Positions 27,110 through 41,403 of a stretch of 64,000 bases of DNA are shown piece by piece. A program made the position numbers and the translations under genes. Every line of letters starts with the position of its first letter. Within the stretch, counting starts at the first letter, position 1. The stretch spans positions 11,381-75,380 of the forward strand of contig PKYI01000159.1 of NCBI GenBank assembly GCA_003133645.1, written 5' to 3'. The DNA is from Acidobacteriota bacterium (GTDB lineage: Bacteria; Acidobacteriota; Thermoanaerobaculia; Thermoanaerobaculales; Thermoanaerobaculaceae). The notes under the pieces are model-generated. The model saw only the letters and a list, made by a program, of their open reading frames with translations, had not been told where the DNA came from and ran no database searches.

Positions 27110-27511
27110 TCAGGCCGGTTTAAGTGCGGGTTCGGCGTTTCCCACGAGGCGCTTCACCTCGGCGAGCAGGTCTTCGGGCTTCACGGGCTTCTCCAAGTAG
27201 CCTTCGGGGGCCGGGACCTGGGCACGGGACGAGATGAACTGCTTGAAGTCGTGGGTGACGCCTGTGACGATGATGACCGGAACCCTCCTGAGCGCCTCAT
27301 CTTCTTTGAGCTGCCGGTAGGTCTTCACGCCGGTCATCTCGGGCATGGTGATATCCAGCGTGATGAGATCGGGGTGGCCCTTCCTGATCTGCTCCATGGC
27401 CTCATCCCCGTTGGCGGCTTCCAGCGTGTCGTAGCCCGCGTCTTTGAGGACCGTGCTGAGGTAGGTCACCACGTCCGGCTCGTCGTCCACCACCAGGATC
27501 GTCTTGCTCAT
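27110..27511 (-). CDS. Response regulator, receiver domain only
   Basis: KTILVVDDEPDVVTYL...DLITLDITMPEMTG...PVIIVTG...EKP. Last gene of the DsrMK-like operon (13-nt gap). Confidence 0.9.
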   Translation of the reverse strand: MSKTILVVDDEPDVVTYLSTVLKDAGYDTLEAANGDEAMEQIRKGHPDLITLDITMPEMTGVKTYRQLKEDEALRRVPVIIVTGVTHDFKQFISSRAQVPAPEGYLEKPVKPEDLLAEVKRLVGNAEPALKPA

Positions 27512-27524: not shown

Positions 27525-29132
27525 TCAGTGCCACTCCCAGTCGATGAAGCCGGGCTTGGCGTCCACCATGCAGTTCACGATGAGCTCCACCAGCCCGCCG
27601 TACAGAATCCTGTTTTTGTTCCACAGGTCGTAGTACGCGAGCATGTCGCGGAACTGCCCCTTGCAGTTGCTGCACGGGGCGCAGATGTACTTGTTGATGG
27701 ACGGGTCCATGCAGTCGGCGAAGGCGTTGAGGACCTGTTCCATCTTCTTCCGGCCCGAGACGTGGAAACGCCAGTCCTGAAAGTTGTTGCCGCTCATGAT
27801 GGCAAAGCCCGAGCCGCCGCCGCAGCAGTAGTTGTCCACGCCGTGGGGCTCCATCTCCCGAAACTCGGGGCAGATCTTGCGGACGATCTCGCGCTGTGGC
27901 TCCACCACGCCCATGAGCCGGACCAGGTTGCAGGGGTCGTGGAGGGTGACGGGGAAGGCGTTCCGGCTGGGGTCGAGCGTGAGGCGGCCGTTCATGACGA
28001 TGTCCCGCAGGAGTGTCATCGAGCTTTCCCGGGGTATGTTCAGGTCGCCGGTGAGGACGCGGTCGGCGATGACGGAGAGGGCCTTGTGCGCGTGGCCGCA
28101 CTCGCCGAGCACGATCTTCTTCACGCCGAGCTTCTTGGCCGCCTGGGCGTGCTTGATGGCCACCCTGGCGAACTGGGCGTCGTCGTACCAGAGCCCGTAG
28201 TTGATCGAGTCGTAGCCCGCCAGCTCGGAGGAGAGGGTCCACTTGATGCCCGCGGCGCTCAGGACCAAGGCGAAGGCGCCGGGGTTCTCGGGCCACGCCA
28301 GGATCTCGCCCGCGTTGTGGATGAGAAGGACGTCGGCGCCCTCCACGTCCCACGGGGTCTCGACCTTGATGCCCGTTCTGTCCATCATGTCCTCGTCGAT
28401 GAACTCGATGTTGTCCTTCACAACGAGAGAACTCATACCCGTCGAGGACCCCACCTTGAGCTGAAGGACGGAGCCGTTGTCGTGGCACTCCTTGGCGTTG
28501 ATGCCAAGCTCCTGGCTGAAGAGCTTGCGGAGCTCGTGGGCCACCAGGCCGTTGTCCGCACCGATGGGACAGGTCTGGGCGCACCGCCGGCAAAGGTTGC
28601 ACCGGTAGGCCAGCTCGGCGAGGCGCGCGACCAGCGGCCAGTTGATCTCGATGTCGCCGTGCTGCCAGGCCGAGAGCGCGCCGCCGTGCTTGACGCTCTT
28701 GAAGTAGAGCCGGCGAACGAGCTCGGAACGGAAGGTCGGGCGGTAGAGCTCGTCGTTGCCGCTCGCCTCGAAGATGTGGCAGGCCTGGGAGCAGGTCTGG
28801 CACTTGGCGCAGTGCTCCATGGAGAGGACCAGCGGCTGCAGGAACGTCCAGTTGTTCTCCCTGGTGAAGAGCTTGTCCAGCCCCGCCAGGAACTTCCGCA
28901 CCAGCTCGTCCTCCTCCTCCTTGGTCTTGGGTTGGGGGATGTTGATGGCGCAGGTGTCGTCGAGCCCGCACTCCACCGAGCCGGTGACCTTCTCCGAGAG
29001 GATCGCCCAGGCGTGGTCTTTCTCGGGCGAGTCGAGAGGGTAGGGAAGCGGCATGAGGTCCTCGTTTTCGAGGTGCGTCAGGGGTTTTCTGTCCTGGCGG
29101 GACATGTCGGTGAGCTTGATCCTGTCCTTCAT
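27525..29132 (-). CDS. HdrD/DsrK-like (Fe-S)-binding protein with two 4Fe-4S ferredoxin motifs and two CCG domains
   Basis: ATG at 29132 (MKDRIKL) overlaps the upstream stop (ATGA). Cluster motifs CAKCQTCSQACH and CNLCRRCAQTCP. CCG motifs LGECGHAHK...HDPCNL and DNYCCGGGSGF...CAPCSNCKGQ. The upstream 287 codons of the track ORF are artefact. Confidence 0.8.
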   Translation of the reverse strand: MKDRIKLTDMSRQDRKPLTHLENEDLMPLPYPLDSPEKDHAWAILSEKVTGSVECGLDDTCAINIPQPKTKEEEDELVRKFLAGLDKLFTRENNWTFLQPLVLSMEHCAKCQTCSQACHIFEASGNDELYRPTFRSELVRRLYFKSVKHGGALSAWQHGDIEINWPLVARLAELAYRCNLCRRCAQTCPIGADNGLVAHELRKLFSQELGINAKECHDNGSVLQLKVGSSTGMSSLVVKDNIEFIDEDMMDRTGIKVETPWDVEGADVLLIHNAGEILAWPENPGAFALVLSAAGIKWTLSSELAGYDSINYGLWYDDAQFARVAIKHAQAAKKLGVKKIVLGECGHAHKALSVIADRVLTGDLNIPRESSMTLLRDIVMNGRLTLDPSRNAFPVTLHDPCNLVRLMGVVEPQREIVRKICPEFREMEPHGVDNYCCGGGSGFAIMSGNNFQDWRFHVSGRKKMEQVLNAFADCMDPSINKYICAPCSNCKGQFRDMLAYYDLWNKNRILYGGLVELIVNCMVDAKPGFIDWEWH

Positions 29133-30064
29133 TTCTTGGCCCCTTCCCAGGGGTTGGTGGTGGCGATGTCCGCCCAGGTCCTCTTGCCGTCGGCACCCAC
29201 GTGGGCCGCGGACCAGTTCGGCCTGTAGGTCAAGTACTCGGTGAGCTTCGCCTCGATGGCGCTGCCTCGGAGGTTGACCTGGTCGTTCCACCGCACGTCG
29301 TGGTAGGTGAAGTACTTGCCGACGAAGTGGGACATGTGTGTGAGGGGAATGTACGCGGCCAGGAGCGCGCAGAGCACGATGCCGGCCGCGAGCAGGCCGG
29401 GCACCTGGAGCGTCCGGTCGAAGGTCAGGAGCCCCTGGACCAGGGCCACCACGCTCGGGTCCCCGGGCGACCTCAGCAGGATCCCCGCCGTCAGGACGCC
29501 GAAGGCGACGAGGAAGAAGAGCAGGTTGAAGACGTCTCCCGCAGTGGTGTAGGTCTTCAGGTCCGCGTCGGTGAGCCGCCGGTGCAGGAGCCCCACCGCG
29601 CCGACCATGGCCAGCGCCATGCCCGCAACCCCGGACACCGTGTAGACCCATTGGAGGATGGTTCCCAGGGGTCCCGCCATGAGAGCAGGGGCCGCGAGGC
29701 CCGCGACCGCCGCGACAAACACGAGGCCGCACGTTCCCGCCAGAATGTAGAGCCCGAAGTGGAAGGGGAACGAGCGGTACCAGAGCTTGCGGTTGAACTC
29801 GCGGAGGGCCTTGAGGAAGAGCATCTCGGGGACCATGACCCGAAGCTCTCCCGCCAGGTTGTAGTGGCGCTTGCGGGTCCACCAGTCCTTGTCCTCGAAG
29901 TAGGACCCTCCGTGTTTCACCTTCTCGGGATCTTCGTGGGGCACCGGGTAGAGTTCCCAGCGCAGGTGGATAGGGGCCCGCGCGTACATCCACGCTCTGG
30001 CTGCGGTGGCCACGGCGAAGACCGCGGTGCCTGCGCCCAGTGCCAAGTACACGAGAACGCTCAT
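29129..30064 (-). CDS. NarI/DsrM/HdrE-like membrane cytochrome b subunit
   Basis: 311 aa with 5-6 TM helices. The N-terminal region WMYARAPIHLRWELYPVPHE and the operon partner (CCG protein) fit DsrM/HmeC-type quinone-interacting subunits. The family call rests on architecture plus context. Confidence 0.6.
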   Translation of the reverse strand: MSVLVYLALGAGTAVFAVATAARAWMYARAPIHLRWELYPVPHEDPEKVKHGGSYFEDKDWWTRKRHYNLAGELRVMVPEMLFLKALREFNRKLWYRSFPFHFGLYILAGTCGLVFVAAVAGLAAPALMAGPLGTILQWVYTVSGVAGMALAMVGAVGLLHRRLTDADLKTYTTAGDVFNLLFFLVAFGVLTAGILLRSPGDPSVVALVQGLLTFDRTLQVPGLLAAGIVLCALLAAYIPLTHMSHFVGKYFTYHDVRWNDQVNLRGSAIEAKLTEYLTYRPNWSAAHVGADGKRTWADIATTNPWEGAKK

Positions 30065-30221
30065 CTGGATTCCTCCCCTGGTCGGCGTCCGCTGCGATCG
30101 AGGCTCGAAGGTTCTACCGTGCGATCCCTTTCACACCCGTTGTAAGAATAACTCTTTCGATCTGGGCAGGCGAGTCCCCTGAGGCCTTTCCCAGGCGCTG
30201 GCAGTTGGCGTCGATTCCGTC

Positions 30222-30340
30222 ATTCCCGCGGAAGCGGGAATCCAGGTCATTGCCGGCTTTTGTCGTCGTTCCCGCGCCCGCGGGAACCCAGGTCCTTGCC
30301 GTTGCCACCGAAGGTCCTGGATCCCCGCTTGCGCGGGGAT
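30222..30340. repeat. Three REP-like palindromic hairpins (30222-30241, 30268-30287 direct; 30321-30340 inverted)
   Basis: gtcATTCCCGCGGAAGCGGGAATccaggtc; gtcGTTCCCGCGCCCGCGGGAACccaggtc; ctggATCCCCGCTTGCGCGGGGATgacgac. Confidence 0.9.
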
Positions 30341-30346
30341 GACGAC

Positions 30347-32422
30347 CTACGACGCACGCTTGAGGACCGTGCACACCGATGCGCAGATCGGTCCGCCGAT
30401 GTTGAACGTCGCGGCGACCTTGGCGTTCTTCACCTGCAGCTCGGGCGGGACCTTGCCGAGGAGTTGCCACGCCGACCAGCCGATCATCGCGACGCCGGTG
30501 GCGCCGATCGGGTGCCCCTTGGCGATCAGGCCGCCGGAGGTGTTGATGCCGCACTCGCCGCCAACGGCGGCCTTGCCGTCGACCCAGTACTGCGCGCCCT
30601 TGCCGACCGGCGCCTTGCCCAGCACCTCGGCCGCGATCGCGGCCATCACCGTGAAGCAGTCGTGGACCTCGGCGACGTTGACGTCGGCCTGGGTGGCCCC
30701 GGCCATCGCGTACGCCTTGCCCATCGCCGCGTAGGCGCCGGCCGGGCGGAGGACGTCGCGGCCCGCCTTCATGAGCGGGTCGGTGGCCTGGGCGTAGCCT
30801 GCGATCTCGACCACGTCGGCCTTGGCCACGCCCAGCCGCTTGAGGCCCTCCTCCGTGGCGACGATCATCGCGGCGTAGCCGTCGGTGATCTGCGAGCAGT
30901 CGTAGGTCTTCAACGGCAGCCCCTCGACGATGTAGCGGTTGATCCCCTCGATCTTCATCGCCTGCTCAAGGGTGGGTTGCACCTTCTGCATCTGCGCGTA
31001 CGGGTTGTACTTGGCGTTGCCGTACTCGTTGACGGCGATCTGCGCCAGCTGCGCCTCCGTGACGCCATAGGTTTTCATGTAGAGGTCCATGACCTCGGCG
31101 AACAGGTGCGGGAAGACGAACACCTTACCCGGCCGCTCGTCGGGGTGCGAGAAGTAGCCCAGCACCTCGCCGATGAGCTTGCCGTCCATCTTGCCGTCGT
31201 TGTCGCGCATCTTCTCGTAGCCGACCGCGATCCCGACCTCGCCGTCGCCGAGGAGGAGCTTGTGGATCACGGAGAGGATCGCCTGCCCGCCGGTGGCGCA
31301 GGCGTTCTCGACCGCCTCGATCGGCTTGGCGCCGAGACCAGGCACCATCGCCATCAGCCCGGAGAGCAGCCCCTGCTTGTTGAGGGAGACGTTGCAGACG
31401 GCGCCGACAGAGCCGACGTCGATGGCGGTGGGGTCGACCTTGATCTCGGCGCACACCTCCTTGACCGCGTTCGCGATGATGTCCGGCGTCTGCATGTCCA
31501 TGAGCTTGCCGAACTTCGACTGGTGGTAGGCGGCGATATAGACGGGTTTCCTCATGCTGTCCTCCCGGCGGATCGTTGCCGCGCCGATGCGCTCCGGCGT
31601 GCGGCCGACCCGCCCATCATAGCGCGACACCGAGGCAAGAAAATCGAGGCACGAGCGGATGAAACGCTCCGGCTGCTCGACCACGAGCACGTGGCCGCTG
31701 CCGTGGACGATCTCCAGGCAGGCGCCCGGGATCGCGGCCGCCAGGGCGCGCGCGCGGTCGAGCGGCATGACGAGGTCGGCGCCCGCCGCCAACACGAGGA
31801 CCGGGCAGGTGATCTTCCCGAGCACGGGCCGCAGGTCGATGTCCTCGATCGACGTGAGCAACTCGGCGGCCGCCGCGAACCACCACGGCGGCAGCAGCGC
31901 GATCTGAGCGGACCGGGCCGCCAGCTCGTCGCGATGCGCGGCGATGTACTCCGGTGAGTAGAAATACGGCACCAGGATCTCGCCCACGGACGCAGCGGCT
32001 CGACCGGCGGCGGCGTCGCGGCAGGCTCGCCCCAACTCCGCGCCGCCGTCGCGCATGAGTGGGGTGGCGACGTCCGTGGCGGTGGCGACCACCATTGAAG
32101 CGACCCTGGTGGGTTGGGTGGCGGCGAGGAGCAGGCCGACCTCGGCCCCGAACGAAGCTCCGATCACACGGGCGCGCTCGATCTCCAGGGCGTCGAGGAG
32201 CGCGATCACGTCGGCGACGTGCCCGTCGAGGGTCCGATGCGGCGGCTCGTGCGAGCGCAGCTGGCCGCGGAAGTCACAGCGAACGACCCGGTACCGTTCG
32301 ACGAACGGCTCGATGAACGGGTTCCACGACGAGATGCTCATCATCCCGCCGTTGAGCAGCAGCAGCGGCTCGCCGTCGCCGTCCAGCTGGTGCGCCAATA
32401 CGCCTGTCTGGTCCACGTTCAC
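30347..32422 (-). CDS. In-frame fusion: alpha/beta-hydrolase (N-terminal, ~290 aa) :: SCP-x/archaeal-type thiolase (C-terminal, 402 aa). The thiolase also has its own SD+ATG at 31555.
   Basis: Hydrolase: LLLLNGGMMSISSW, nucleophile elbow VIGASFGA, His HGSGHVLVVEQP. GTG at 32422 overlaps the ligase stop (GTGA). No stop codon occurs between ...FLASVSRYDGRVGRTPERIGAATIRREDS and MRKPVYIAAYHQSKFGK. Thiolase: ENACATGG (Cys), EVHDCF, NTSGGLIAKGHPIGATG. Confidence 0.7.
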   Translation of the reverse strand: MNVDQTGVLAHQLDGDGEPLLLLNGGMMSISSWNPFIEPFVERYRVVRCDFRGQLRSHEPPHRTLDGHVADVIALLDALEIERARVIGASFGAEVGLLLAATQPTRVASMVVATATDVATPLMRDGGAELGRACRDAAAGRAAASVGEILVPYFYSPEYIAAHRDELAARSAQIALLPPWWFAAAAELLTSIEDIDLRPVLGKITCPVLVLAAGADLVMPLDRARALAAAIPGACLEIVHGSGHVLVVEQPERFIRSCLDFLASVSRYDGRVGRTPERIGAATIRREDSMRKPVYIAAYHQSKFGKLMDMQTPDIIANAVKEVCAEIKVDPTAIDVGSVGAVCNVSLNKQGLLSGLMAMVPGLGAKPIEAVENACATGGQAILSVIHKLLLGDGEVGIAVGYEKMRDNDGKMDGKLIGEVLGYFSHPDERPGKVFVFPHLFAEVMDLYMKTYGVTEAQLAQIAVNEYGNAKYNPYAQMQKVQPTLEQAMKIEGINRYIVEGLPLKTYDCSQITDGYAAMIVATEEGLKRLGVAKADVVEIAGYAQATDPLMKAGRDVLRPAGAYAAMGKAYAMAGATQADVNVAEVHDCFTVMAAIAAEVLGKAPVGKGAQYWVDGKAAVGGECGINTSGGLIAKGHPIGATGVAMIGWSAWQLLGKVPPELQVKNAKVAATFNIGGPICASVCTVLKRAS

Positions 32423-33984
32423 CCCTTGCCTTCTCCCGGCGTCGTGTGCCCCGTGCCCTGCAGGCGAGAGTAACGCGCCTGCAGCTCCCCCTTGACCACC
32501 TTGCCGTAGGCCGTTCGGGGAAGGGCGTCCGTCGAAATGAACTCTCTCGGGATCTTGTACTTCGCCATGCGGGCTTCGAGAAAGTCCGCCAGCTCGAAGG
32601 CGCTCGGTCCAGGCTCGGCGCGCGGCACCACGAACGCGACCCCGACCTCGCCCCACGTCGGGTGGGGGACCCCGATCACCGCCGCATCCTTGACCCCCGG
32701 GTGGAGCAACAACTCGCCTTCGATCTCGGCCGGGTAGACATTGACGCCGCCCGAGATGAACATGTCCTTTCTCCGGCCTGCGATGGTGAAGAACCCGTCC
32801 TCGTCGCGTCGCGCCAGGTCCCCGGTGTGGAACCAGCCATCGGGGTCGAGAGCGGCGGCGGTGGCCTCCGCGTTGTTCCAGTACCCGGTGCAGACGTGGG
32901 GTCCTCTCAGGAGGAGCTCACCAACCTCGCCGACAGGAGTCTCGCCCCCCTCGGCATCGACCAGGTTGGCTTGGGTGAACATCAGGGGACGCCCGATCGA
33001 CCCCTTCTTCCGCACCGAGTCCTCGTTCGACATGGCGAAGCAGTTGACCCCCACCTCGGTGAGGCCGTACCCCTGGCGAAAGACGACCCCGCGTTTCTGG
33101 AACGCCTCGATAATGTAGAGAGGCAGCGGCGCACCGCCCGAGGCCAGCCATCGCACGTGCGAGAGGTCAACGGAGGCGAACTCGGGCGTCTCCATCAGCA
33201 GTTTCCAGATGGTGGGGACGCCGAGGACGACGGTGCAACGTTCACTCTCAACGATGCGGCAGATCTCGTTGGGATCGAAGCCGGCGTGCAACACGATCGT
33301 CCCGCCGATGGCGAAGATCGGCAGAAGAAAGGCGCCCAGCCCGCCGGCGTGGTACAGGGGGGTGAAGACCGGCGAGACGTCCTCTTCGCGGAGCTGCCAT
33401 GAGATCGCTGTGTTGTAGGCGTTCCACGCGATCATCCGATGGGGGAGCATGACCCCCTTGGGCTTGCCGGTCGTGCCGCTGGTGTAGAGGAGGCAGTAGG
33501 TGTCCTCGGGTGAGACCGGGGTCCGGGGTCCGGGGTCCGGGGTCCGTACGACCAGATCGGGATACCTGAGATCCCATGGCTCGACGGGGCCGTCGAGGGC
33601 GACCCAGTGGTCGAGCTCAACCATCCCCCTGAGCTCGCGGACCACGGGGGCGAACGCACCGTCGTAGACGAGCGCGCGCATGCCGGAATCGCGCACCATG
33701 AAGGCGAGCTCGTGCGCGGTCAGGCGGGTGCCGAGCGGCACGATGACGACGCCGCTCTTGCCGGCGGCGAAGAAGTTGTCCAGGAACTCGACCCGGTTGT
33801 GAGCGAGGAGGCCGATGCGCTCGCCTTTGGTCAGGCCGAGCCGATTCCGCCAGGCGACGGCGCAAGCAGCCGCGCGGGCGTCGAGCTGGCCGTAGGTGAA
33901 GCGTTCGCCGGTCGGGACGAAGACCAGCGCGATCTTCTCCGGCGTCAACCTCGCGCGCTCGCCGAGGACGTCACCGTGCAACAT
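32419..33984 (-). CDS. AMP-dependent acyl-CoA synthetase/ligase (ANL superfamily)
   Basis: AMP-binding core LLYTSGTTGKPKGV, plus YGLTE, GWFHTGDLARRDEDGFFTIAGRRKDMFISGGVNVYPAEIE and C-terminal PRTAYGKV. Confidence 0.9.
   Translation of the reverse strand: MLHGDVLGERARLTPEKIALVFVPTGERFTYGQLDARAAACAVAWRNRLGLTKGERIGLLAHNRVEFLDNFFAAGKSGVVIVPLGTRLTAHELAFMVRDSGMRALVYDGAFAPVVRELRGMVELDHWVALDGPVEPWDLRYPDLVVRTPDPGPRTPVSPEDTYCLLYTSGTTGKPKGVMLPHRMIAWNAYNTAISWQLREEDVSPVFTPLYHAGGLGAFLLPIFAIGGTIVLHAGFDPNEICRIVESERCTVVLGVPTIWKLLMETPEFASVDLSHVRWLASGGAPLPLYIIEAFQKRGVVFRQGYGLTEVGVNCFAMSNEDSVRKKGSIGRPLMFTQANLVDAEGGETPVGEVGELLLRGPHVCTGYWNNAEATAAALDPDGWFHTGDLARRDEDGFFTIAGRRKDMFISGGVNVYPAEIEGELLLHPGVKDAAVIGVPHPTWGEVGVAFVVPRAEPGPSAFELADFLEARMAKYKIPREFISTDALPRTAYGKVVKGELQARYSRLQGTGHTTPGEGKG
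33517..33546. repeat. Heptanucleotide tandem repeat (CGGGGTC)x4 inside the ligase CDS; the plus (template) strand is a [G4N3]4 quadruplex motif
   Basis: cggggtc x4 read directly. It encodes RTPDPGPRTP just upstream of the YTSGTTGKPKG motif. Confidence 0.9.
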
Positions 33985-34004
33985 GGCCCCCTCCTACTCG
34001 ATCA

Positions 34005-34075
34005 GGGCACCGGGGACCGGGCACCGGGTCCCGAAAAGGCGTGGTCGGTGGTCGGTGGCCGGCGATCGGTAGCCT
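34005..34075. repeat. Two adjacent heptamer microsatellites in the ligase 5' intergenic region
   Basis: GGGCACC GGGGACC GGGCACC GGGTCCC (34005-34032), then GTGGTCG GTGGTCG GTGGCCG GCGATCG GTAGCC (34041-34075). Confidence 0.85.
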
Positions 34076-34155
34076 GTGGAGGATCGATCGCCTGGCGTAG
34101 CCGGTTGTAGAGGCGGGGCTTGTCCCCGCCCGGCAGTGGGCGGCCACACGGCACC

Positions 34156-35070
34156 TCATGGTGCGGCCTCCAGGGCCGTGCGCAGCGCGGCGAGAAAGCG
34201 GTCGGGGCACTCGATCTGCGGGACGTGGCCGCAACGTTCGAGCGTGACCAGGCCCGCATGCGGAAGCTGCACCTTCATGCGCTCGGCGTAGTCGAGTGGG
34301 ACAAGCCGGTCGGAGGCGCCCCAGATGAGCTGCACCGGCGCGCGCAGCTCGCGGAGTTGCGTCTCGTCAAGCACGTAGGAATCCATCGTGGCCGCACTCG
34401 CGGCGAAACGGGCCAGGGGACCTTCGCGTGCCTGGCGCACGATGTCGTCGAGCACAAAGTCGGGTACCGGCGGGCTCGTGCGGTCGCGCGTTTGCTCGAC
34501 CGACTCCCGCGCCTCGCCCCGGTTCTGGGGCAGCACGCGCGCGCGCAGGTTGCTCCCCCGGATCGCGCCGCCGTCGACGCAGATGGCCATCGCGACGCGA
34601 TCCGGGTGGCGCTGGGCGACCAGCATCGCGATCCAGGCGCCGAGCGAGTTGCCGACGAGGACGACCTTCTGTCCCGGGGCGACCACATCGAGGACGGCCT
34701 CAACGCCCCCGAGGACGTCCGCGACGTCGATCGGCCCGCGCCGCGGGGCGCTGTCGCCGTGGCCGGCGAGGTCGGGGACGATGAGTCGGTGCGACCCGAT
34801 CAGCTCCGGCACGACCTTGAACCAAGTGCCGGCGTTGTCGCCGGCTCCGTGCAGGAGAACGACGACGGGACCCCGACCGCCGACGAATACGGTCTGGTCC
34901 CCGGCAGGGGCGGGAACGTGCACTTTCCGCAGCCCCGCCGTGCGCAGCGCGGCTCGCGTCTGCCAGGCGAAGACGGTAAGCGGCCGGTACCTGACCATCC
35001 ACCCGACCCAAACCGCCGCTCCCCCGACGATGGCGAGGATGACGACAAGCACGATGCCGCGGATGCTCAT
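34156..35070 (-). CDS. Membrane-anchored alpha/beta-hydrolase
   Basis: N-terminal TM helix IVLVVILAIVGGAAVWVGWMV. Motifs: HGAGDNAGTW, nucleophile elbow VGNSLGAW, catalytic His CGHVPQIE. Confidence 0.85.
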   Translation of the reverse strand: MSIRGIVLVVILAIVGGAAVWVGWMVRYRPLTVFAWQTRAALRTAGLRKVHVPAPAGDQTVFVGGRGPVVVLLHGAGDNAGTWFKVVPELIGSHRLIVPDLAGHGDSAPRRGPIDVADVLGGVEAVLDVVAPGQKVVLVGNSLGAWIAMLVAQRHPDRVAMAICVDGGAIRGSNLRARVLPQNRGEARESVEQTRDRTSPPVPDFVLDDIVRQAREGPLARFAASAATMDSYVLDETQLRELRAPVQLIWGASDRLVPLDYAERMKVQLPHAGLVTLERCGHVPQIECPDRFLAALRTALEAAP

Positions 35071-35107
35071 GACTCTCCTTCGCTGCGTCCTACGCCCCGG
35101 GCCCTGG

Positions 35108-35180
35108 ATTCCCGCTTTCGCGGGAATGACGGCGTGGCCGTTTCGTTCTCTCGCCGGTCCCCGGTCCCCGGTCCCCGGTC
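35108..35180. repeat. REP-like hairpin (35108-35127) followed by heptamer repeat (CGGTCCC)x3.7 (35155-35180)
   Basis: ctggATTCCCGCTTTCGCGGGAATgac; cggtccc cggtccc cggtccc cggtc, ending 1 nt before the stop codon of the upstream KAS III gene. The minus (sense) strand is G4-rich. Confidence 0.9.
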
Positions 35181-35181
35181 A

Positions 35182-36177
35182 TCACGGCATTCTGAACGCC
35201 GCCCCCGCCTGGTTGTACCCCACGCCCGAACCGATCATCACGACCAGGTCGTTGGAACGGATCTTACCCTTCGCGATGGCGTCGTCGAGCGCCATCGGGA
35301 TGCAGGCGGAGCCGGTGTAGCCCCACCGCTCCATGATCGTGTGGGTCTTTTCCATCGGCAAGCCGAGGTCGGCCATGACCAGCTCGATCGAGGGCTTGCG
35401 CACCTGGGTGAAGATGATGAAGTCGATCGCCGAAACCGGAAAGCCGCCTTCCTTGGCGACGCGCCGGGCCAACCGCGGCCACCCCTCGTGGTTGATCTCC
35501 GGCGGGTAGCGGTCGAGGATCTTCACGGTGGTGCGGCCCGCGTTGACCGACTCGACCGTCGCCGGCTCGAAGGTGCCGCCCGAGTAGATCCCCCAGTGCC
35601 GGTGGTACTCGCCGCCGGCCTGCGACGCGGAGGAAACGAAACCCGGCGTTTCGCGTGGTTCCAGCACGGCCGCGCCGGCGCCGTCGCCGTAGAAGAAGAT
35701 CATCGGGTCGTTGGGGTCAGTGAGCTTGTGCATCATGTAGACGCCGACCACCAGCACGACATTGAGACCCGAGTTGGTGGTGATCATGCCGGCGCCGATC
35801 GCGAGCCCGGTCGGAAACGAGGCGCACGCGCAGCCGACGTCGAAGGTGCCGGCGTTCTTCGCCCCGAGCTTGTGCTGTAGCACGACCGAGGTCGCTGGGG
35901 TGATGTAGTCGGGGGAGTCGGTGCCGAGGATGATGAGATCGACGTCCTCGGGCTTCCGCCCGGCGCGTTCGAGCGCCTGCCGCGCGGCCGGCAGCGCGAT
36001 ATCGGAGGTCGCCCAGTCTTCGGGCGCCCACCAACGGCTCCGGATTCCACTCGACGCCTCCATCTTGTCCACGAACTCCGGTACTGCGGTATCGAAACGC
36101 GCCCGCAGGTCGTCGTTGGTCACCTCGCGTTCGGGCAGGTAGTGCCCGGTTGCCACGATGTTGGCGATTCTGGCCAT
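35182..36177 (-). CDS. KAS III (FabH)-like condensing-enzyme paralog 2 with non-canonical His/Asn positions
   Basis: MARIANIVATGHYLPEREVTN..., active-site Cys context FDVGCACASF. FIIFTQVRKPS stands where FabH has PHQAN, and WGYTGSACIP where FabH has GNTSAAS. ATG at 36177 is preceded by CGAGGTG. Confidence 0.8.
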   Translation of the reverse strand: MARIANIVATGHYLPEREVTNDDLRARFDTAVPEFVDKMEASSGIRSRWWAPEDWATSDIALPAARQALERAGRKPEDVDLIILGTDSPDYITPATSVVLQHKLGAKNAGTFDVGCACASFPTGLAIGAGMITTNSGLNVVLVVGVYMMHKLTDPNDPMIFFYGDGAGAAVLEPRETPGFVSSASQAGGEYHRHWGIYSGGTFEPATVESVNAGRTTVKILDRYPPEINHEGWPRLARRVAKEGGFPVSAIDFIIFTQVRKPSIELVMADLGLPMEKTHTIMERWGYTGSACIPMALDDAIAKGKIRSNDLVVMIGSGVGYNQAGAAFRMP

Positions 36178-36386
36178 GATCACCTCGGTTCCCTGGGTGA
36201 AGGGTCAAACGTCAAAGGTAAGGGGACGGGAAAGGCCGAGATCGCGGGATGCAGAGCGCGGCCCGGTACGTTGGCCGCGGGGTCCGCGTCTCTCCGTCGT
36301 CGGTTTCACATTTCCCCTTCTTATCTTTCACTCTCTTATTTCCAGAACGATCCCACCGTTCAGCGAGCTCACCGCCGCCCCCTTTG

Positions 36387-37382
36387 CTACGACATCCGGA
36401 ACGCCGCCCCCGCAAGGTTGTAGCCCACTCCAGAGGCGATGAACACGGCCAGGTCGCCACGATGGAGCTTGCCTCGCTCGCGAGCATCGTCGAGCGCCAT
36501 CGGGATGCAGGCGGACCCGGTGTAGCCCCACCTCTCCATGATCGTGTGGGTCTTCTCCATCGGCAACCCGAGGTCGTTCATCACCAGCTCGATCGAAGGC
36601 TTGCGCACCTGCGTGAAGATGATGAGATCGATATCTTCGACGGCGAAGCCGCCCTCCTTAGCGACCCGCTTGGTCAGTCGCGGCCACGCCTCGTGGTTGA
36701 GCTCCGGCGGGTAGCGGACGAGGATCTTGGTCGTGGTGCGGCCCGCCTTGACCGATTCCACGGTGGCGGGCTCGAACGTGCCCCCCGAGTAGATCCCCGA
36801 GTGACGGTGGTACTCTCCGCCGGCCTCGCTGACCGAGGAGATGAAACCGGGCGCGTCCCTGGGCTCGAGGACCGCCGCGCCGGCCCCGTCACCATAAAGG
36901 AAGATCATTGGTTCGTTCGGGTCGGTCAGCTTGTGCATCATGTAGGCACCGACCACCAGGACAACGTTGAGACCTGGGTTGGTGGCGATCATGCCGGCGC
37001 CGATCGCGAGCCCGGTCGGAAACGAGGCGCACGCGCAGCCGACGTCGAAGGTGCCGGCGTTCTTCGCCCCGAGCTTGTGCTGCAGTACAACCGAGGTCGC
37101 TGGGGTGATGTAATCGGGGGAGTCGGTGCCGAGGATGATGAGGTCCACCTCTTCGGGCTTCCGCCCGGCGCGTTCGAGCGCCTGGCGCGCGGCCGGCAGC
37201 GCGACATCCGAAGTCGCCCAATCGTCGGGCGCCCACCAACGGCTCTTGATTCCGGTCGAAGCCTCCATCTTGTCGACGAACTCCGGCACCGCGGCGTCGA
37301 AACGCGCCCGCAGCTCGTCGTTGGTCACCTCGCGTTCAGGCAGGTAGTGCCCGGTTGCCACGATGTTGGCGTATCGGGTCAT
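36387..37382 (-). CDS. KAS III (FabH)-like condensing-enzyme paralog 1 (tandem duplicate of 35182..36177)
   Basis: ATG at 37382 (MTRYANIVATGHYLPEREVTN) follows GAGGGA. Roughly 85-90% amino-acid identity to paralog 2 by eye, with long identical nucleotide runs (for example 36990-37085 versus 35785-35880). Same FTQVRKPS / WGYTGSAC motifs. Confidence 0.8.
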   Translation of the reverse strand: MTRYANIVATGHYLPEREVTNDELRARFDAAVPEFVDKMEASTGIKSRWWAPDDWATSDVALPAARQALERAGRKPEEVDLIILGTDSPDYITPATSVVLQHKLGAKNAGTFDVGCACASFPTGLAIGAGMIATNPGLNVVLVVGAYMMHKLTDPNEPMIFLYGDGAGAAVLEPRDAPGFISSVSEAGGEYHRHSGIYSGGTFEPATVESVKAGRTTTKILVRYPPELNHEAWPRLTKRVAKEGGFAVEDIDLIIFTQVRKPSIELVMNDLGLPMEKTHTIMERWGYTGSACIPMALDDARERGKLHRGDLAVFIASGVGYNLAGAAFRMS

Positions 37383-37460
37383 GTCGTTCCCTCTCCCTCT
37401 TTCGCGGGGCGGGCGCCCTCGCCCGCCCACCTCGGCCCGGCCGAGGGCGGCTGATTGGCC

Positions 37461-38249
37461 TCACGTCCCGAGGACGAGGCCGCCGTCCACCGAGATCACC
37501 GCGCCGTGGACGAACGACGCCGCATCGGACGCGAGCCAGACGTATGCGTTGGCGATGTCCTCGGGCTTGCCCATCCTCCCCATCGGGGTGTGGGCCACCA
37601 TGTTGTCGATGACCTTCTCGGGCATGGCGGAGAGGATCTCGGTGGCGATGAACCCGGGCGCCACAGCATTGACCCTGATTTTGAACTTCCCGAGCTCCCG
37701 TGCCCACGTCCTCGTCATCGTGATCAGACCGCCCTTGGTCGCGGCGTAGTTGGTCTGCCCGAAGTTGCCGTACAGGCCGACGACGGATGACGCCGACAGC
37801 ACCACGCCGCCCCCGCCCGCGATCATGTGCGGGACCGCGGCGCGGGTGCACAGGAACACGCCTTTCAGATTCACGTTGATGACCGCGTCCCACGCCTCGT
37901 CGGTCATGGTGGAGACGACGGCTCCGTCCTTGACCTTGACGAGCTGAGCGTCGCGCACGATCCCGGCGTTGTTGACCAGCACGTCGATCCGGCCCCAGCG
38001 GGCGATCACGGCGGCCACTGCTTCGGCAACCGCCGCGCCGTCGGCGACGTTGACCTTGGCGAACATCGCCTCGCCGCTCGCGGCTTCCAGCTCCAGGACG
38101 AGTTCCCCGGCCTTGCCGTCGCTCACGTCCCACGCGGCGATCCTCGCCCCTTCCTGCGCGAACCGGAGCGCGGTGGCGCGGCCGATGCCGGCTGCCGCCC
38201 CGGTCACGATGACAACCTTCCCGTTCAGTCCCGTCTCGATGGACACCAC
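37461..38249 (-). CDS. Classical SDR oxidoreductase, 3-oxoacyl reductase (FabG)-like
   Basis: TGAAAGIG Rossmann motif, NNAG, catalytic S...YAATK. 262 aa. Confidence 0.85.
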   Translation of the reverse strand: MVSIETGLNGKVVIVTGAAAGIGRATALRFAQEGARIAAWDVSDGKAGELVLELEAASGEAMFAKVNVADGAAVAEAVAAVIARWGRIDVLVNNAGIVRDAQLVKVKDGAVVSTMTDEAWDAVINVNLKGVFLCTRAAVPHMIAGGGGVVLSASSVVGLYGNFGQTNYAATKGGLITMTRTWARELGKFKIRVNAVAPGFIATEILSAMPEKVIDNMVAHTPMGRMGKPEDIANAYVWLASDAASFVHGAVISVDGGLVLGT

Positions 38250-38301
38250 AGACCTCCCTTGTGCCTCATTGGGCCTTGCCTACGTTGTCTCCCGGCTTCT
38301 T

Positions 38302-38322
38302 GGGGGTGGGGCAGGGTGGGGG
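38302..38322 (+). other. Compact G-quadruplex motif GGGGG-T-GGGG-CA-GGG-T-GGGGG
   Basis: Read directly. Lies between the TonB-receptor stop (38359) and the SDR start (38249), on the antisense strand of both. Confidence 0.6.
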
Positions 38323-38358
38323 TTCGGACCCCTGTTCCCTGCGCCCTGTGCCCTTCTT

Positions 38359-41166
38359 CTAGAACGACCACCTCAAGCCGAGCTGGACCTCCCGAGCCGG
38401 AAGCGTCGCGCTGTACTTGCCGAACAGCGGGTTGGGCACGTACGCGGCCTTCGGGTTCGCGATCGTCGGGCCGGAAAGATACTGGCCGCAGTTCATCGAG
38501 TTGACGTCGTAGTTGACGGTGTTGAAGAGGTTGAACGCCTCCGCGATGATCTCGAGCCGCCCAGCCGAGTGCATGGCGAGCGTCTTGGTGAGCCGCAGCG
38601 AAACGTTGCGGTAGACCGGGCCGTCCTGAGCGTTGCGCGCGACGCCCGGGGGCCGGTCGGAGTTGTACCCGTCGCCGTTGTAGTCGTATCCCAACCGTTC
38701 GGTCCAGGGCTGGCCCGAGCCGTACTCGAGGATCGGCGCGGCGGTCAGGCCCCACCCCAGGTTGAACACGCCGGACACCACGAGGTGGTAGCGCTCGTCG
38801 GACTGGCTGCGTCCCCACTCGCCCTCGGGGTTCCCCGGGTCGTTGGGGTAGCCGGCGGTGTACACCGGACTGAAGTCATCGGAGAGGTTCTTCTTGTCGG
38901 CGAGGGTCAGTGACGCGGTGATCAGGTGGCCCCCCTTGAGCGTCCCGTTGAGGCTGAGCACCAGCGCCTTGTACTCCGAGTGGCCGTCGTTGGTGTAGGT
39001 GGCCATGTTCGTGTAGGCGGGGTTGATGCGCGAGTGGGTGGCGTTGCCCGTCCAGTTGGTGTCCGTCACGAAGATCTCGTCGTGGCCCTTGACGTAGACC
39101 GCTTCGGTGTCGAAGAACAGCCCGCTGCCCAGCCGCGTCGTCCAGCCGAGGGTGGCCTGGTCCGCGTACGGGTTCTTGTAGTCCTGGGCCAGCATCGTGA
39201 TCGAAGGCGCCAGCATGATCCCGGTGGTCGTCAGATTGTTGGGATCCAGCCAGGTCGACGGCGGCAAGCCAAAGAGGATGCCGCTGACCCTCGTGTAGAG
39301 CTTGCGCCCGGTGAAGCCGTTCTGCTCGAGCTCGGCGAACGCCGGGACCAGCAGGAAGCGGCCGACGAAGCGGCCGACGCCGCCGCGGATCAGGTTCTGC
39401 CCATCGCCGGCAACGTCCCAGGAGAAGCCGAGGCGCGGCTGGTAGTTGTTGGTGTCACGCTTGCGGCCGTTGGGGACGAGCGGGGAGCGGAAATCGGGGT
39501 TGTTGCCGTTCGTGTCGAGGTCCCAGCGCAGCCCGTAGTTGAAGGTGAAGTTCGACGCCGCCCGCCAGTCGTCCTGGATGAACAGGCCGATGAGGTCGGT
39601 ACTGATCTTGGCGTCCGCGGAACCGACGCCGTACAGGTACTCGATCGGGAGGGCGCGCGTGTCGTTGAGGTAGACGATCGTGCCGTGCGAGAAGGTGGGG
39701 ATGTCCGACTCGTCCTTCACGTGCTGGAACGAAATGCCCATCTTCCACTCGTGCTTGTCGCCGTAGAGATGGGCGGTGTCCCGGATCTCCCACTGCGTGC
39801 CTTCGCCGAGGATGTCACCGGTGGTGTTGGTGCCGGTCTTCAGCGTGTTCCCCACGGAGAACCACTCCTCCGGAGCGATAGAGTTGGTGGGCTCGTCGTA
39901 CTTGCGGCCGCCCACCTGCAGGTAGAGCTCGTTGAGGTAGTTGGAACTCGGGGCGAGGGTGTGTTCGATGGTGAGGTTCCAGTTGTCGCGGTTGAGCTGG
40001 TTCCCCCACGATTGGTCGGAAACCCCTCCGACGTGGAAGTTGTCCTCGCGGTAGCGCTCGTAGGTGAACTTGGCGGCCAGTCGCTGGCTGTCCGACACCG
40101 AGTGGTCGATGCTGCCGAACAACATCGTCTGGTTCCACGGGTGAGGGATGTCCGCCGCCTCCGAGGCGAATGCGCCGCCCGGCCGGAACGCCAATGGGAC
40201 GTCGTCCGTCTTGACGTACTCGGTCGACAGGAAGAAGTGGGTCTTGTCCTTGACGATCGGTCCGCCGAGCGTGAATCCGTACTGGCCGCGGTCGTACTTG
40301 TTGCACCCCGAGTTGGCGCCGCACGGCAAGTCCAGCGCTCCCTTGGCGCGCAGGTTATCGGCCCGGTAGTAGGCGAAGACCGTCCCCATGAGATCGTTGG
40401 TTCCCGAGCGCGTCACGACGGAGAGCGCACCGCCCGCGGAGCCGCCGATCTCGGTGTCGAACCGGTTGGTGATCACGCGGAACTCGGCGATCGCATCTTG
40501 GGAGAACTGCACCCGGGCGAGGCCGAGAGCGGGGTCGGTGAAGTCCACGCCGTCCACCATGATCGTGGCTTGCGAGGCGTTGCCCCCGGCGCCGATCACC
40601 GGGTCGCCGCTGATGAAACGGTAGCCGCCGCGCTCGCGCTCGACGCCGGGGGCGATGAACGCCAGTTTCTGGAAGTCGCGGTCGGGCACCGGCAGCGACT
40701 GGATCTGCTGCGGGATGATGTTGGTCGAGGAGTCGGTCTTCACCACATCGACGAGCGGGACCTCGCCCGTGACCGTCACGGCCTCTTCCTTGGTCTTGGC
40801 CTGCTGCATCACGGCGTTGACCCGCAGCGTCTGGCCGACCCGCAGCTCGAGGCTCTCCTCGGCGACCGGCGCGAACCCGTCGAGGTCGAGGCGGATCGCG
40901 TACGTGCCGGGCGGCAGCGCGACAAAGCGCACGATGCCTGCGGCGTCGGTCGGCAGCGTCCGTTCCAGGCCGGTGGCGGGGTTCGTGAGCTTCACCGTCA
41001 CGCCGGGCAACGGCAGCTTGCCGGTGTCCGCGACCCGAAGCTCGATCTGCGCGTTGCTGACCTGCGCGACGGCCGGCCCCGCAAGGAGCAGGCCGATCAG
41101 GCAGGCGGCCGCGACCGCGGCGGCTCGCCGCGGCCAGGCGTGGTTGGGAAGGGTTCGCATCACCAT
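38359..41166 (-). CDS. TonB-dependent outer-membrane receptor with N-terminal CarboxypepD_reg-like domain
   Basis: ATG at 41166 follows AGGAGGAGA. Signal peptide ...LLLAGPAVAQ. CarboxypepD_reg: VTVKLTNPATGLERTLPTDAAGIVRFVALPPGTYAIRL. Plug, long beta-barrel and terminal ...LGLRWSF. Confidence 0.85.
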   Translation of the reverse strand: MVMRTLPNHAWPRRAAAVAAACLIGLLLAGPAVAQVSNAQIELRVADTGKLPLPGVTVKLTNPATGLERTLPTDAAGIVRFVALPPGTYAIRLDLDGFAPVAEESLELRVGQTLRVNAVMQQAKTKEEAVTVTGEVPLVDVVKTDSSTNIIPQQIQSLPVPDRDFQKLAFIAPGVERERGGYRFISGDPVIGAGGNASQATIMVDGVDFTDPALGLARVQFSQDAIAEFRVITNRFDTEIGGSAGGALSVVTRSGTNDLMGTVFAYYRADNLRAKGALDLPCGANSGCNKYDRGQYGFTLGGPIVKDKTHFFLSTEYVKTDDVPLAFRPGGAFASEAADIPHPWNQTMLFGSIDHSVSDSQRLAAKFTYERYREDNFHVGGVSDQSWGNQLNRDNWNLTIEHTLAPSSNYLNELYLQVGGRKYDEPTNSIAPEEWFSVGNTLKTGTNTTGDILGEGTQWEIRDTAHLYGDKHEWKMGISFQHVKDESDIPTFSHGTIVYLNDTRALPIEYLYGVGSADAKISTDLIGLFIQDDWRAASNFTFNYGLRWDLDTNGNNPDFRSPLVPNGRKRDTNNYQPRLGFSWDVAGDGQNLIRGGVGRFVGRFLLVPAFAELEQNGFTGRKLYTRVSGILFGLPPSTWLDPNNLTTTGIMLAPSITMLAQDYKNPYADQATLGWTTRLGSGLFFDTEAVYVKGHDEIFVTDTNWTGNATHSRINPAYTNMATYTNDGHSEYKALVLSLNGTLKGGHLITASLTLADKKNLSDDFSPVYTAGYPNDPGNPEGEWGRSQSDERYHLVVSGVFNLGWGLTAAPILEYGSGQPWTERLGYDYNGDGYNSDRPPGVARNAQDGPVYRNVSLRLTKTLAMHSAGRLEIIAEAFNLFNTVNYDVNSMNCGQYLSGPTIANPKAAYVPNPLFGKYSATLPAREVQLGLRWSF

Positions 41167-41374
41167 GGTTGTCTCCTCCTGGGCGCGCTGCGCCCTGATC
41201 CGAAAAAGAGTTCCGAGTTGACGGTTGAGAGTCGAGAGGTGCGAGTCGACAGTTCCCCGCGCCTTGGCAGGCGGCCGGCGGGGTCGTCGTGCGAAAGCTG
41301 GGTCTGCCTTCGATGCCCTCGGTTCATCCTCGCCCCTTCTACAAAACGAACGCTCGATATGTTTTCCGGCGCCG

Positions 41375-41403
41375 ACTCTAGACCCGCACCCCAGGCGTGT
41401 CAA
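41375..41403 (-). promoter_or_regulatory. Sigma70-type promoter candidate giving a ~200-nt leader for the TonB-dependent receptor gene
   Basis: The minus strand reads TTGACA-N17-TAGAGT. Confidence 0.45.

Follow-up and report, generated by a model that had tools for sequence, protein, structure and literature searches.

FabH, the β-ketoacyl-acyl carrier protein (ACP) synthase III (KAS III) that acts in the setting of type II fatty acid synthesis (FAS II), has a Cys-His-Asn active site, an ACP-docking Arg (Arg249 in Escherichia coli), and a CoA-stacking Trp (Trp32). KAS III-like proteins are also encoded in gene clusters of other kinds. The OleABCD, LstABCD, and NltABCD clusters each unite a KAS III-like protein, an α/β-hydrolase, an ANL-family enzyme, and a member of the short-chain dehydrogenase/reductase (SDR) superfamily; OleA retains the FabH His and Asn, OleB has an Asp nucleophile, OleD is a reductase type of its own, and the two divergent KAS III subunits of Lst and Nlt form a heterodimer. 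In the archaeal thiolase/HMG-CoA synthase (HMGCS)/DUF35 complex and in PhlACB, an SCP2- or archaeal-type thiolase is found next to a KAS III-fold protein, with DUF35 as the scaffold, and a (3R)-hydroxyacyl-CoA dehydrogenase together with an SCP2-type thiolase is the enzyme pair of peroxisomal D-specific β-oxidation (MFE-2 and SCPx). Here we analyzed a gene cluster that shares parts with each of these systems. It lies in a 64-kb window (the whole stretch of DNA analyzed, in which all coordinates below are positions) of a contig from a Thermoanaerobaculales (Acidobacteriota) metagenome-assembled genome (MAG). Its two KAS III-like proteins belong to a clade in which Cys-Thr-Tyr (CTY) replaces Cys-His-Asn, and this clade recurs with the same neighbors across the Acidobacteriota, and with a core of them in other phyla, in what may be a catabolic operon.

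The window has a G+C content of ~68%, and its top protein matches were to Thermoanaerobaculales/Thermoanaerobaculaceae MAGs of the Acidobacteriota. Gene calls together with Pfam and NCBIfam scans placed six genes of the same orientation on the minus strand at 30347 to 38246, with the domains that an initial annotation, made from the sequence alone, had assigned to them. The cluster reaches further upstream than these six genes, as a TonB-dependent receptor-like gene lies directly 5' on the same strand. From 5' to 3', the features are as follows.

38359 to 41166, minus strand: TonB-dependent receptor-like outer-membrane protein, first gene of the cluster (Pfam; signal peptide, CarboxypepD_reg domain, β-barrel)
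37461 to 38246, minus strand: classical SDR, predicted NAD(H)-dependent 3-hydroxyacyl-CoA/3-oxoacyl-CoA oxidoreductase (Pfam adh_short)
36387 to 37382, minus strand: KAS III-like protein A, CTY clade (Pfam, alignments; C118, T257, Y287, D87, C292)
35182 to 36177, minus strand: KAS III-like protein B, tandem duplicate of A with the same CTY residues (Pfam, alignments)
34156 to 35070, minus strand: membrane-anchored α/β-hydrolase ABH1 with PlaF-like architecture (Pfam; N-terminal transmembrane helix; GNSLG serine nucleophile)
32419 to 33984, minus strand: ANL-family acyl-CoA synthetase, the ligase (Pfam, PDB matches, motifs)
31556 to 32422, minus strand: α/β-hydrolase domain ABH2 plus linker, the N-terminal part of a 691-amino-acid fusion open reading frame (ORF) (Pfam; GASFG serine nucleophile)
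30347 to 31555, minus strand: SCP2-type (archaeal-type) thiolase domain, the C-terminal part of the fusion ORF (Pfam, motifs)

None of the six cluster proteins reached an NCBIfam equivalog cutoff. Among the called genes of the window there was no ACP, KAS I/II, acyl-CoA dehydrogenase, or enoyl-CoA hydratase, which agrees with the initial annotation. That annotation had also taken the cluster for something other than a complete β-oxidation set or housekeeping FAS II, and this was borne out.

The CTY proteins have the same fold, nucleophilic Cys, and GDGAGA and GxG loops as FabH. Alignment to FabH structures showed that the Cys is kept in both copies, and that FabH His244 is replaced by Thr ("IFTQVRK") and Asn274 by Tyr ("WGYTGS"); the odd active-site motifs noticed at first sight are therefore real. 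The clade was delimited by a search of 1.84 billion representative proteins, in which all full-length matches above ~175 bits were Cys-Thr-Tyr and ordinary Cys-His-Asn FabH started below that score. When 18 full-length clade members were compared with 68 neighboring FabH representatives, Cys-Thr-Tyr was found in 18/18 members and Cys-His-Asn in the FabH representatives, and Asp87, Asn229, Trp233, Thr257, Tyr287, Gly289, Cys292, and Ser317 were invariant residues specific to the clade. The column of the ACP-docking Arg held Arg in 51 of the 68 FabH sequences but in 0/18 CTY sequences, and that of the CoA-stacking Trp held Trp in 61/68 FabH sequences and was not conserved in the CTY clade. Scores against the NCBIfam FabH models were below the cutoffs (199 to 202 bits versus 249 for NF006829 and 172 to 176 versus 292 for TIGR00747). 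With these scores, and with the His, Asn, and ACP-docking Arg all missing, the two paralogs do not look like genuine FabH, as had been suspected, and the cluster as a whole stands in no ACP or FAS II context. We infer from these residues that the KAS III-like proteins represent a FabH-derived enzyme that is no longer able to decarboxylate malonyl units or to dock ACP.

FabH was the best PDB match of the KAS III-like proteins (E ~1e-42, ~30 to 35% identity), and OleA (E 2e-20 to 4e-17), PqsD (E ~1e-29), and PqsC (E ~1e-10) were weaker; ChlB3 was a weak match. The AlphaFold2 model of protein A (pLDDT 92.8) gave Foldseek TM scores of 0.84 to 0.88 to FabH, BioZ, ZhuH, and PqsD, which is the KAS III (thiolase-superfamily) fold, and neither OleA nor HMGCS was among its 50 best fold matches. 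By hhalign against an annotated HMGCS (probability 95%, E 2e-8), Asp87 ("GTDSP") aligned with the catalytic Glu ("GTESG"), Cys118 with the HMGCS Cys, and "YTGS" of the CTY clade with the "YTGS" of HMGCS, but the catalytic His of HMGCS had no counterpart. By analogy with HMGCS and OleA, an acidic residue of the CTY enzyme may generate or protonate a carbanion. Tentatively, and with slightly less than even confidence, we propose that the CTY proteins are a new catalytic class of the thiolase superfamily: FabH derived, ACP independent, and nondecarboxylating, cleaving or forming a C-C bond or moving an acyl group on a 3-oxoacyl-CoA. They would then be the hallmark of an undescribed pathway, linked to uptake, in at least ~600 species genomes, mainly of Acidobacteriota. 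No description of the CTY clade, its active site in the thiolase superfamily, or the operon was found in the literature searched, nor one of FabH-like protein with DUF35 and thiolase or of KAS III with a retro-Claisen reaction; coverage of that literature was incomplete, so the lack of an earlier description is weak evidence of novelty.

Proteins A and B are 87% identical in amino acids and 85.5% in DNA, the DNA differences lying mostly at third codon positions, and both retain all clade-invariant residues. The tandem pair is also present in the closest relative (locus L006), whereas most relatives have a single copy, indicating a recent, lineage-specific duplication. A conserved heterodimer of two KAS III subunits was therefore rejected, and with it the parallel to the two FabH-like subunits of Lst and Nlt that the initial annotation had drawn. 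On a distant metagenomic contig (L005, 327 to 2319), two tandem CTY KAS III genes encode proteins 42% and 44% identical to the window protein, so that tandem duplication of this gene happened more than once. In loci of the Holophagaceae and Rhodocyclaceae (L055, 4502 to 5581; L080, 4370 to 5404), the CTY enzyme is joined by a second, different KAS III-like family. This family has kept the Cys and has His in "LHFKR" and "GHLGQ", and in L080 its gene lies beside those for a MaoC hydratase and an ANL ligase.

By a pattern scan, at least 600 matches were obtained in 185,579 species genomes, and at least 598 of them were confirmed. The best 80 of these matches were mostly from Acidobacteriota of all classes (Thermoanaerobaculia, Holophagae, Vicinamibacteria, Terriglobia, and Bryobacterales), with a few from Burkholderiales and Anaerolineae at 63 to 65% identity. 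Searches by tblastn with the window proteins recovered the order receptor, SDR, KAS III, ABH1, ligase, (ABH2), thiolase in most loci that were long enough. Many relatives have a third hydrolase (ABH3) as well, and usually there is one orthologous TetR regulator. Rearranged loci keep the same set, for example with the ligase and ABH1 genes divergent from receptor-KAS III-SDR-thiolase. Neighbors were counted by unsupervised clustering of the ORFs within 9 kb of the KAS III gene in 81 loci, many of them truncated contigs. The orthologous SDR was beside the KAS III gene in 70/81 loci (and adjoins that gene in other phyla also), an α/β-hydrolase in 66/81, the ligase in 56/81, one TetR family in 46/81 and in several gene orders, and the thiolase in 40/81. 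Likewise in 40/81 loci, rearranged ones included, an ortholog of the receptor (51 to 89% identity) lay directly upstream of the SDR or KAS III gene. The grouping of these genes is far beyond chance, and the test of synteny in relatives that the initial annotation had called for showed the cluster to be strongly syntenic.

The core of SDR, CTY KAS III, CoA-activating enzyme, and α/β-hydrolase recurs in Bacteroidota, Chloroflexota, and Burkholderiales. In the cultured Chondrinema litorale (Bacteroidota) WSW3-B12, with the CTY ortholog WP_284687638, the order is SDR, KAS III (CTY), Na+:solute symporter, AMP-ligase, α/β-hydrolase, hypothetical protein, and TonB-dependent receptor. Chloroflexota ZRK35, also in culture, and Anaerolineae MAGs have SDR, KAS III (CTY), CoA-transferase, a small ORF, SCP2-type thiolase, DUF35, α/β-hydrolase, and a solute-binding protein (SBP) with an ATP-binding cassette (ABC) importer; in the Chloroflexota locus, aromatic-acid binders are the nearest matches of the SBP. 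A Holophagaceae locus has TetR, CoA-transferase, MaoC hydratase, and hydrolase, then KAS III (CTY), thiolase, SDR, porin, and SBP/ABC. A distant clade member (42% identity; locus P0134) is followed by ligase, hydrolase, SDR, ligase, hydrolase, and SBP/ABC. The SDR and the ligase of these loci are orthologs of the window proteins, with 48 to 62% and 39 to 48% identity, respectively. Contigs of the distant members P0121, P0131, and P0136 were too short to show gene context. The importer of the ZRK35 and P0134 loci is of the LIV type, so that four unrelated kinds of importer stand beside the core: TonB-dependent receptor, Na+:solute symporter with TonB-dependent receptor, LIV-type SBP/ABC, and porin with SBP/ABC. 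A CoA-transferase of the acetyl-CoA hydrolase/transferase family takes the place of the ligase in the Chloroflexota/Anaerolineae and Holophagaceae sister loci, and a MaoC hydratase, not present in the window, occurs in the Holophagaceae and Rhodocyclaceae versions.

The best PDB match of the SDR was 4nbw (E 2e-92, ~62% identity, with a 10-residue insert in common), followed by 4nbu and 4nbv and then by both dehydrogenase domains of the yeast MFE-2 (3R)-hydroxyacyl-CoA dehydrogenase (2et6, E 4e-64). BbsD was also among the matches. We take 4nbt to 4nbw to be "FabG" enzymes with NADH dependence from the work of Javidpour et al. 2014, a paper that PMC8041823 cites. After the glycine-rich motif, the SDR has "AAWD", with Asp at the end of β2. 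In SDRs, an Asp in such a motif usually goes with a preference for NAD(H), which is therefore the probable cofactor here.

The ligase matched the fatty-acyl-/feruloyl-CoA synthetases 8weu and 8wev best (E 1e-109), and also FadD13 and FadD5. It has the motifs YTSGTTGKPKG, GYGLTE, TGD, and PRTAYGK (with the C-terminal catalytic Lys) and was below all NCBIfam cutoffs. An identical protein is encoded on a 60-kb metagenome contig (ENA ERZ19974499). Anthranilate-CoA ligase was a more distant match (E 6e-59 versus 1e-109); with PqsD and PqsC also weaker than FabH for the KAS III-like proteins, membership in a PqsABCDE alkylquinolone system was rejected on both similarity rankings.

Both hydrolases have a serine nucleophile in a GxSxG motif, and they scored 55 to 59 bits against NCBIfam polyhydroxyalkanoate (PHA) depolymerase models with a cutoff of 300. 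PlaF (6i8w) was the best PDB match of ABH1 (E 5.5e-23, 85 bits), in an alignment that spans the anchor region. PlaF is a membrane-anchored phospholipase A1 with its catalytic domain facing the periplasm. The single N-terminal anchor of ABH1 ahead of an α/β-hydrolase, next to a FadD13/FadD5-like ligase, recalls a Lands-cycle-like release and reactivation of fatty acids. However, the similarity to PlaF is remote, there is no PlsC-type acyltransferase, and the oxidoreductase and C-C-cleaving enzymes of the cluster are not needed for such remodeling.

The thiolase has its nucleophilic Cys in "ENACATGG", an HDCF loop ("EVHDCFTV"), and the GHP His in "KGHPIGATG", the HDCF loop being a hallmark of SCP2-type thiolases. 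In the PDB it was closest to acetyl-CoA acetyltransferase 7yvy, trypanosomatid SCP2-thiolases, 6esq (the archaeal thiolase from the HMGCS complex), and BbsB, and it also matched PhlC; it was below every NCBIfam equivalog cutoff. The hydrolase-thiolase fusion described at the outset is indeed one ORF with both domains, but its 769-amino-acid start was too early, because the called start, which gives 691 amino acids, overlaps the ligase stop codon as ATGA. In relatives, ABH2 is a separate gene of 270 amino acids next to the thiolase gene, and ABH3, absent from the window, is encoded 3' of the thiolase in many of them. In L006, ABH2 and the thiolase share one reading frame but are separated by a stop codon; in the window that stop is gone, and the thiolase part retains a start codon (ATG) and a Shine-Dalgarno sequence (GGGAGGA) of its own. 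The fused form was found in four protein clusters (85 to 96% identity) from three data sources (JGI, ENA, and NCBI), so that an assembly artifact was rejected and the fusion is real but lineage specific; it stems from a recent loss of the stop codon. The other 116 of the 120 best thiolase matches were stand-alone proteins of ~401 to 419 amino acids (nearly all 401 to 404), 77 to 86% identical across the phylum.

Taken as a whole, the cluster may be a TetR-linked utilization operon whose substrate, an ester or carboxylic acid, is imported and then handled as a CoA thioester. The TonB-dependent receptor would carry the substrate across the outer membrane, and the membrane-anchored, PlaF-like ABH1 and the soluble ABH2 (with ABH3 in relatives) would cut ester or thioester bonds. 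The ANL ligase would then form the acyl-CoA, the NAD-dependent SDR would oxidize a (3R)-hydroxyacyl-CoA to the 3-oxoacyl-CoA, and the SCP2-type thiolase, the CTY KAS III-like enzyme, or both would cleave a C-C bond without decarboxylation. In the CTY enzyme, the intermediate would be acyl-S-Cys118, with Asp87 (possibly Cys292) as the acid/base and Thr257/Tyr287 forming the oxyanion hole. We infer the catabolic direction, the order in which the enzymes act, the 3-hydroxy/3-oxo chemistry, and what the KAS III-like enzyme does. We give this scheme as a whole about even chances; any particular substrate, or thiolysis as the KAS III reaction, is held with less confidence than that. Candidate substrates are esters or oligomers of (R)-3-hydroxyalkanoates and esters of aromatic or phenylpropanoid acids.

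The repeated linkage of the core to four kinds of importer and to TetR is the usual signature of a substrate-utilization operon, which makes a catabolic role more likely than the envelope lipid or secondary metabolite product first imagined. Since sister loci have a CoA-transferase instead of the ligase, the ligase step would be CoA-thioester formation rather than a β-lactone synthetase step. The SDR resembles the MFE-2 dehydrogenase domains and the thiolase has the SCP2-type loop, as in D-specific peroxisomal-type β-oxidation, and the Holophagaceae and Rhodocyclaceae versions add the MaoC (R)-hydratase. In contrast to that pathway, the cluster is bacterial, is linked to TetR and transporters, has an additional KAS III-like enzyme and two to three α/β-hydrolases, and in the window lacks an acyl-CoA oxidase/dehydrogenase and a hydratase. 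The missing acyl-CoA dehydrogenase and hydratase would be explained if the substrate already carried a 3-hydroxy group. Because normal β-oxidation uses the (S)-isomer, a module specific for the (R)-isomer would give (R)-3-hydroxy acids of polyesters or bacterial lipids a useful point of entry.

Several points weigh against a catabolic operon of this kind. The same lack of a hydratase and an acyl-CoA dehydrogenase means that the scheme needs a substrate that already has a 3-hydroxy or 3-oxo group. A second C-C-cleaving enzyme beside the thiolase has no explained need, and in loci without a thiolase the KAS III-like enzyme must either do the cleavage or do something else. The charges around the ABH1 anchor, as read from its sequence, are more in keeping with a catalytic domain in the cytoplasm than with one in the periplasm. 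Some CarboxypepD_reg-type TonB-dependent receptor-like proteins, such as Oar of Myxococcus, act in export, and genes for biosynthesis and efflux are likewise found under TetR control. The hints to the substrate conflict as well: the short-chain CoA-transferase family, the acetoacetyl-type homologs, and the solute symporter suggest C4 to C6 hydroxy acids, whereas the Chloroflexota SBP (nearest aromatic-acid binders) and the ligase (nearest feruloyl-/fatty-acyl-CoA synthetases) suggest aromatic or long-chain acids.

Another catabolic explanation, which we regard as unlikely, is that the CTY KAS III and the SCP2-type thiolase (with DUF35 where present) form a complex like that of thiolase/HMGCS or PhlACB. 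It would carry out an aldol reaction or C-acyl transfer on a β-dicarbonyl or aromatic polyketide-like substrate, for example phloroglucinol-type, benzoylacetyl-type, or triketide CoA esters that are broken down or remodeled, by a chemistry unlike simple thiolysis. The Chloroflexota/Anaerolineae operon does unite KAS III, CoA-transferase, and thiolase with DUF35 (Zn-ribbon/OB fold), the latter by the thiolase, and the alignment of Asp87, Cys118, and "YTGS" with HMGCS, the thiolase matches to 6esq, BbsB, and PhlC, the SDR match to BbsD, and the aromatic-acid-type SBP all point the same way. To this extent the relationship to PhlA/PhlC and to thiolase/HMGCS raised in the initial annotation finds some support. 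Against it, neither the window nor the Acidobacteriota loci examined contain a DUF35 gene; moreover, the Acidobacteriota thiolase is just 28 to 31% identical to the DUF35-linked one, the catalytic His of HMGCS is unmatched, and the CTY protein is far nearer to FabH than to HMGCS by sequence and fold. The thiolase/HMGCS and PhlACB systems are also without the additional SDR, ligase, hydrolases, and importer. Less likely again is a biosynthetic head-to-head, nondecarboxylative Claisen condensation in the manner of Ole, Lst, and Nlt, giving a β-keto or β-hydroxy acid, β-lactone, olefin, or envelope lipid, with the receptor handling the product. The same four superfamilies as OleA, OleB, OleC, and OleD are clustered here, a nondecarboxylative role is plausible for the condensing-enzyme homolog and would suit the predicted inability of the CTY clade to decarboxylate malonyl units, Oar-type receptors are able to export, and glycosyltransferase and Wzy_C genes lie upstream. 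However, the shared list of superfamilies is all that remains of the proposed kinship, and membership in these systems was rejected. A general-base Glu followed by Pro defines OleA (Glu117-Pro in the Xanthomonas campestris enzyme; PMC7064751). This Glu-Pro upstream of the Cys is absent from the CTY clade, where residue 93, before Pro94, is Ser or Thr in 18/18 sequences in a column that we mapped by its spacing to the Cys. The His and Asn are lost, the similarity to OleA (E ~1e-20) is well below that to FabH (~1e-42), OleA is missing from the 50 best fold matches, the SDR is a classical NAD-type enzyme rather than of the OleD type, and the hydrolases are Ser enzymes, in contrast to the Asp-type OleB. 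Unlike in Ole, Lst, and Nlt, the ligase is interchangeable with a CoA-transferase, and importers (SBP-dependent ABC systems and a Na+:solute symporter in other phyla) and TetR are linked to the core. The GT4 and Wzy_C neighbors are kept within the Thermoanaerobaculia only.

The cluster could also serve a PHA-like cycle that forms or exchanges esters of (R)-3-hydroxyacyl units, although we consider this improbable. The thiolase and the NADH-dependent reductase would make (R)-3-hydroxyacyl-CoA, the KAS III-like protein, with the Cys alone, would be an O-acyltransferase or a thiolytic de-esterase, and the hydrolases would be depolymerases. KAS III-like proteins without the decarboxylation residues do act as O-acyltransferases, such as CerJ and ChlB3/6, and ChlB3 is a weak match here; a thiolase, an acetoacetyl-CoA-reductase-like SDR, and hydrolases with weak polyhydroxybutyrate (PHB) depolymerase matches are all present, and all members are very highly conserved. 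However, the depolymerase matches are far below their cutoff, there is no phasin or PhaC-type gene, and internal storage does not explain the linkage to importers. Ordinary metabolism, that is, a spare FabH/FabG for FAS II initiation or generic β-oxidation genes that happen to sit together, is the least credible explanation and is very improbable. It would fit the database names ("3-oxoacyl-ACP synthase III", "FabG", and "acetyl-CoA acetyltransferase") and FabH as the closest fold, but not the clade-wide loss of the catalytic His/Asn and the ACP-docking Arg, the scores below NCBIfam cutoffs for all proteins, the window without ACP, KAS I/II, acyl-CoA dehydrogenase, or enoyl-CoA hydratase, and the tight synteny with transporters and TetR across phyla.

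Regulatory and repeat features associated with the cluster were located at the following positions.

15047 to 15667, plus strand: TetR-family regulator, ortholog of the cluster-flanking TetR of relatives (71 to 73% identity to the L002 and L007 TetR)
41375 to 41403, minus strand: promoter-like site TTGACA, 17 nt, TAGAGT, ~210 nt upstream of the receptor gene (σ70-like pattern)
35110 to 35125, no strand assigned: repetitive extragenic palindromic (REP)-like hairpin TCCCGC-N4-GCGGGA, intergenic, KAS III-B to ABH1 (motif count)
30224 to 30285, no strand assigned: two REP-like hairpins just 3' of the stop codon of the fusion gene (motif count)

The receptor had no Pfam match to a Plug domain and no NCBIfam family, and its N-terminal sequence is plug-like by eye. 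The GT4 and receptor genes are 455 nt apart, and the promoter-like site lies in this gap. It is the sole σ70-like match in 29900 to 41800, where 0.8 would be expected by chance, and is weak evidence. The TetR gene adjoins the gene for RNase Y and is displaced by ~15 kb here, whereas in L002 and L007 it is adjacent to the cluster. No inverted repeat that could be a TetR operator was found in the upstream region of the receptor gene, and PDB matches covered the DNA-binding domain of the regulator alone, so that no ligand class was obtained from them. At 15047 to 19268, the TetR ortholog stands beside genes for a DrrA-type ABC ATPase, an ABC-2 permease, and a TonB_C protein; the regulator may have been recruited to this exporter or may also control it.

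No intrinsic terminator was found inside the cluster, and the hairpins at 30224 to 30285 probably mark the 3' end of the operon. The intergenic hairpin family (A/G)TTCCCGC-N4-GCGGGAA(T/C) has members at 4528 to 4543, 30224 to 30239, 30270 to 30285, and 35110 to 35125 and a near-copy close to 30320; three (counting the near-copy) are just 3' of the fusion gene and one is within the operon. TCCCGC-N(2-8)-GCGGGA has four exact copies in the window versus 0.27 expected. These hairpins may be transcript-end or stability elements. The gaps within the cluster are 78 to 209 nt, which is unusually long for an operon, and short tandem oligomers (GGGGACC ×3, CCGACCA ×3, and CTCGACTCTCAACCGTCAACTCGGAACTC) occur in the gaps at 35071 to 35181, 33985 to 34155, and 41167 to 41621.

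Genes on both sides of the cluster were rejected as members. The upstream GT4, Trm112, and Wzy_C genes keep their linkage only within the Thermoanaerobaculia. Downstream (27525 to 30064, minus strand), translational coupling links the gene for a NarI-like membrane cytochrome b (Nitrate_red_gam) to one for a Fer4_8/CCG-domain protein of the HdrD/DsrK type. This DsrMK-like membrane redox module adjoins the cluster in this lineage only and is displaced or absent elsewhere. The window further contains an AbiEii-family nucleotidyltransferase toxin gene with a one-base overlap with the upstream gene of 267 amino acids (8748 to 10546, minus strand), probably an AbiE-type toxin-antitoxin/abortive-infection pair. 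An HTH_3 domain is fused to Peptidase_M78 in an ImmA/IrrE-type regulator (23279 to 24367, plus strand), beside which are three response-regulator genes and a PAS histidine kinase gene (24586 to 27511). Large envelope- or glycan-related genes at 49657 to 62280 encode two PMT_2 glycosyltransferase-like proteins, an NPCBM-domain protein of 828 amino acids, and a protein of ~1600 amino acids with PMT, DUF2298, and NHL repeats. A tricorn-protease-like protein of 1241 amino acids with PD40 propeller, Tricorn_C1, PDZ, and Peptidase_S41 domains is encoded at 515 to 4240 (plus strand).

Acidobacteriota are among the most abundant bacteria of soil and sediment, and their carbon metabolism has been little tested. 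The operon is among the most conserved accessory gene sets of this phylum, with KAS III, SDR, and thiolase 65 to 85% identical across classes. Its parts all come from known superfamilies, and together they probably amount to a variant of CoA-dependent catabolism. The database names "FabH", "FabG", and "acetyl-CoA acetyltransferase" are probably misleading for these proteins, and a solved reaction would correct the annotation of thousands of sequences. The reaction of a FabH fold with Thr/Tyr and with Asp at the position of the HMGCS base would add a new mechanism to the superfamily, and the identity of the substrate would reveal a carbon source that these organisms scavenge.

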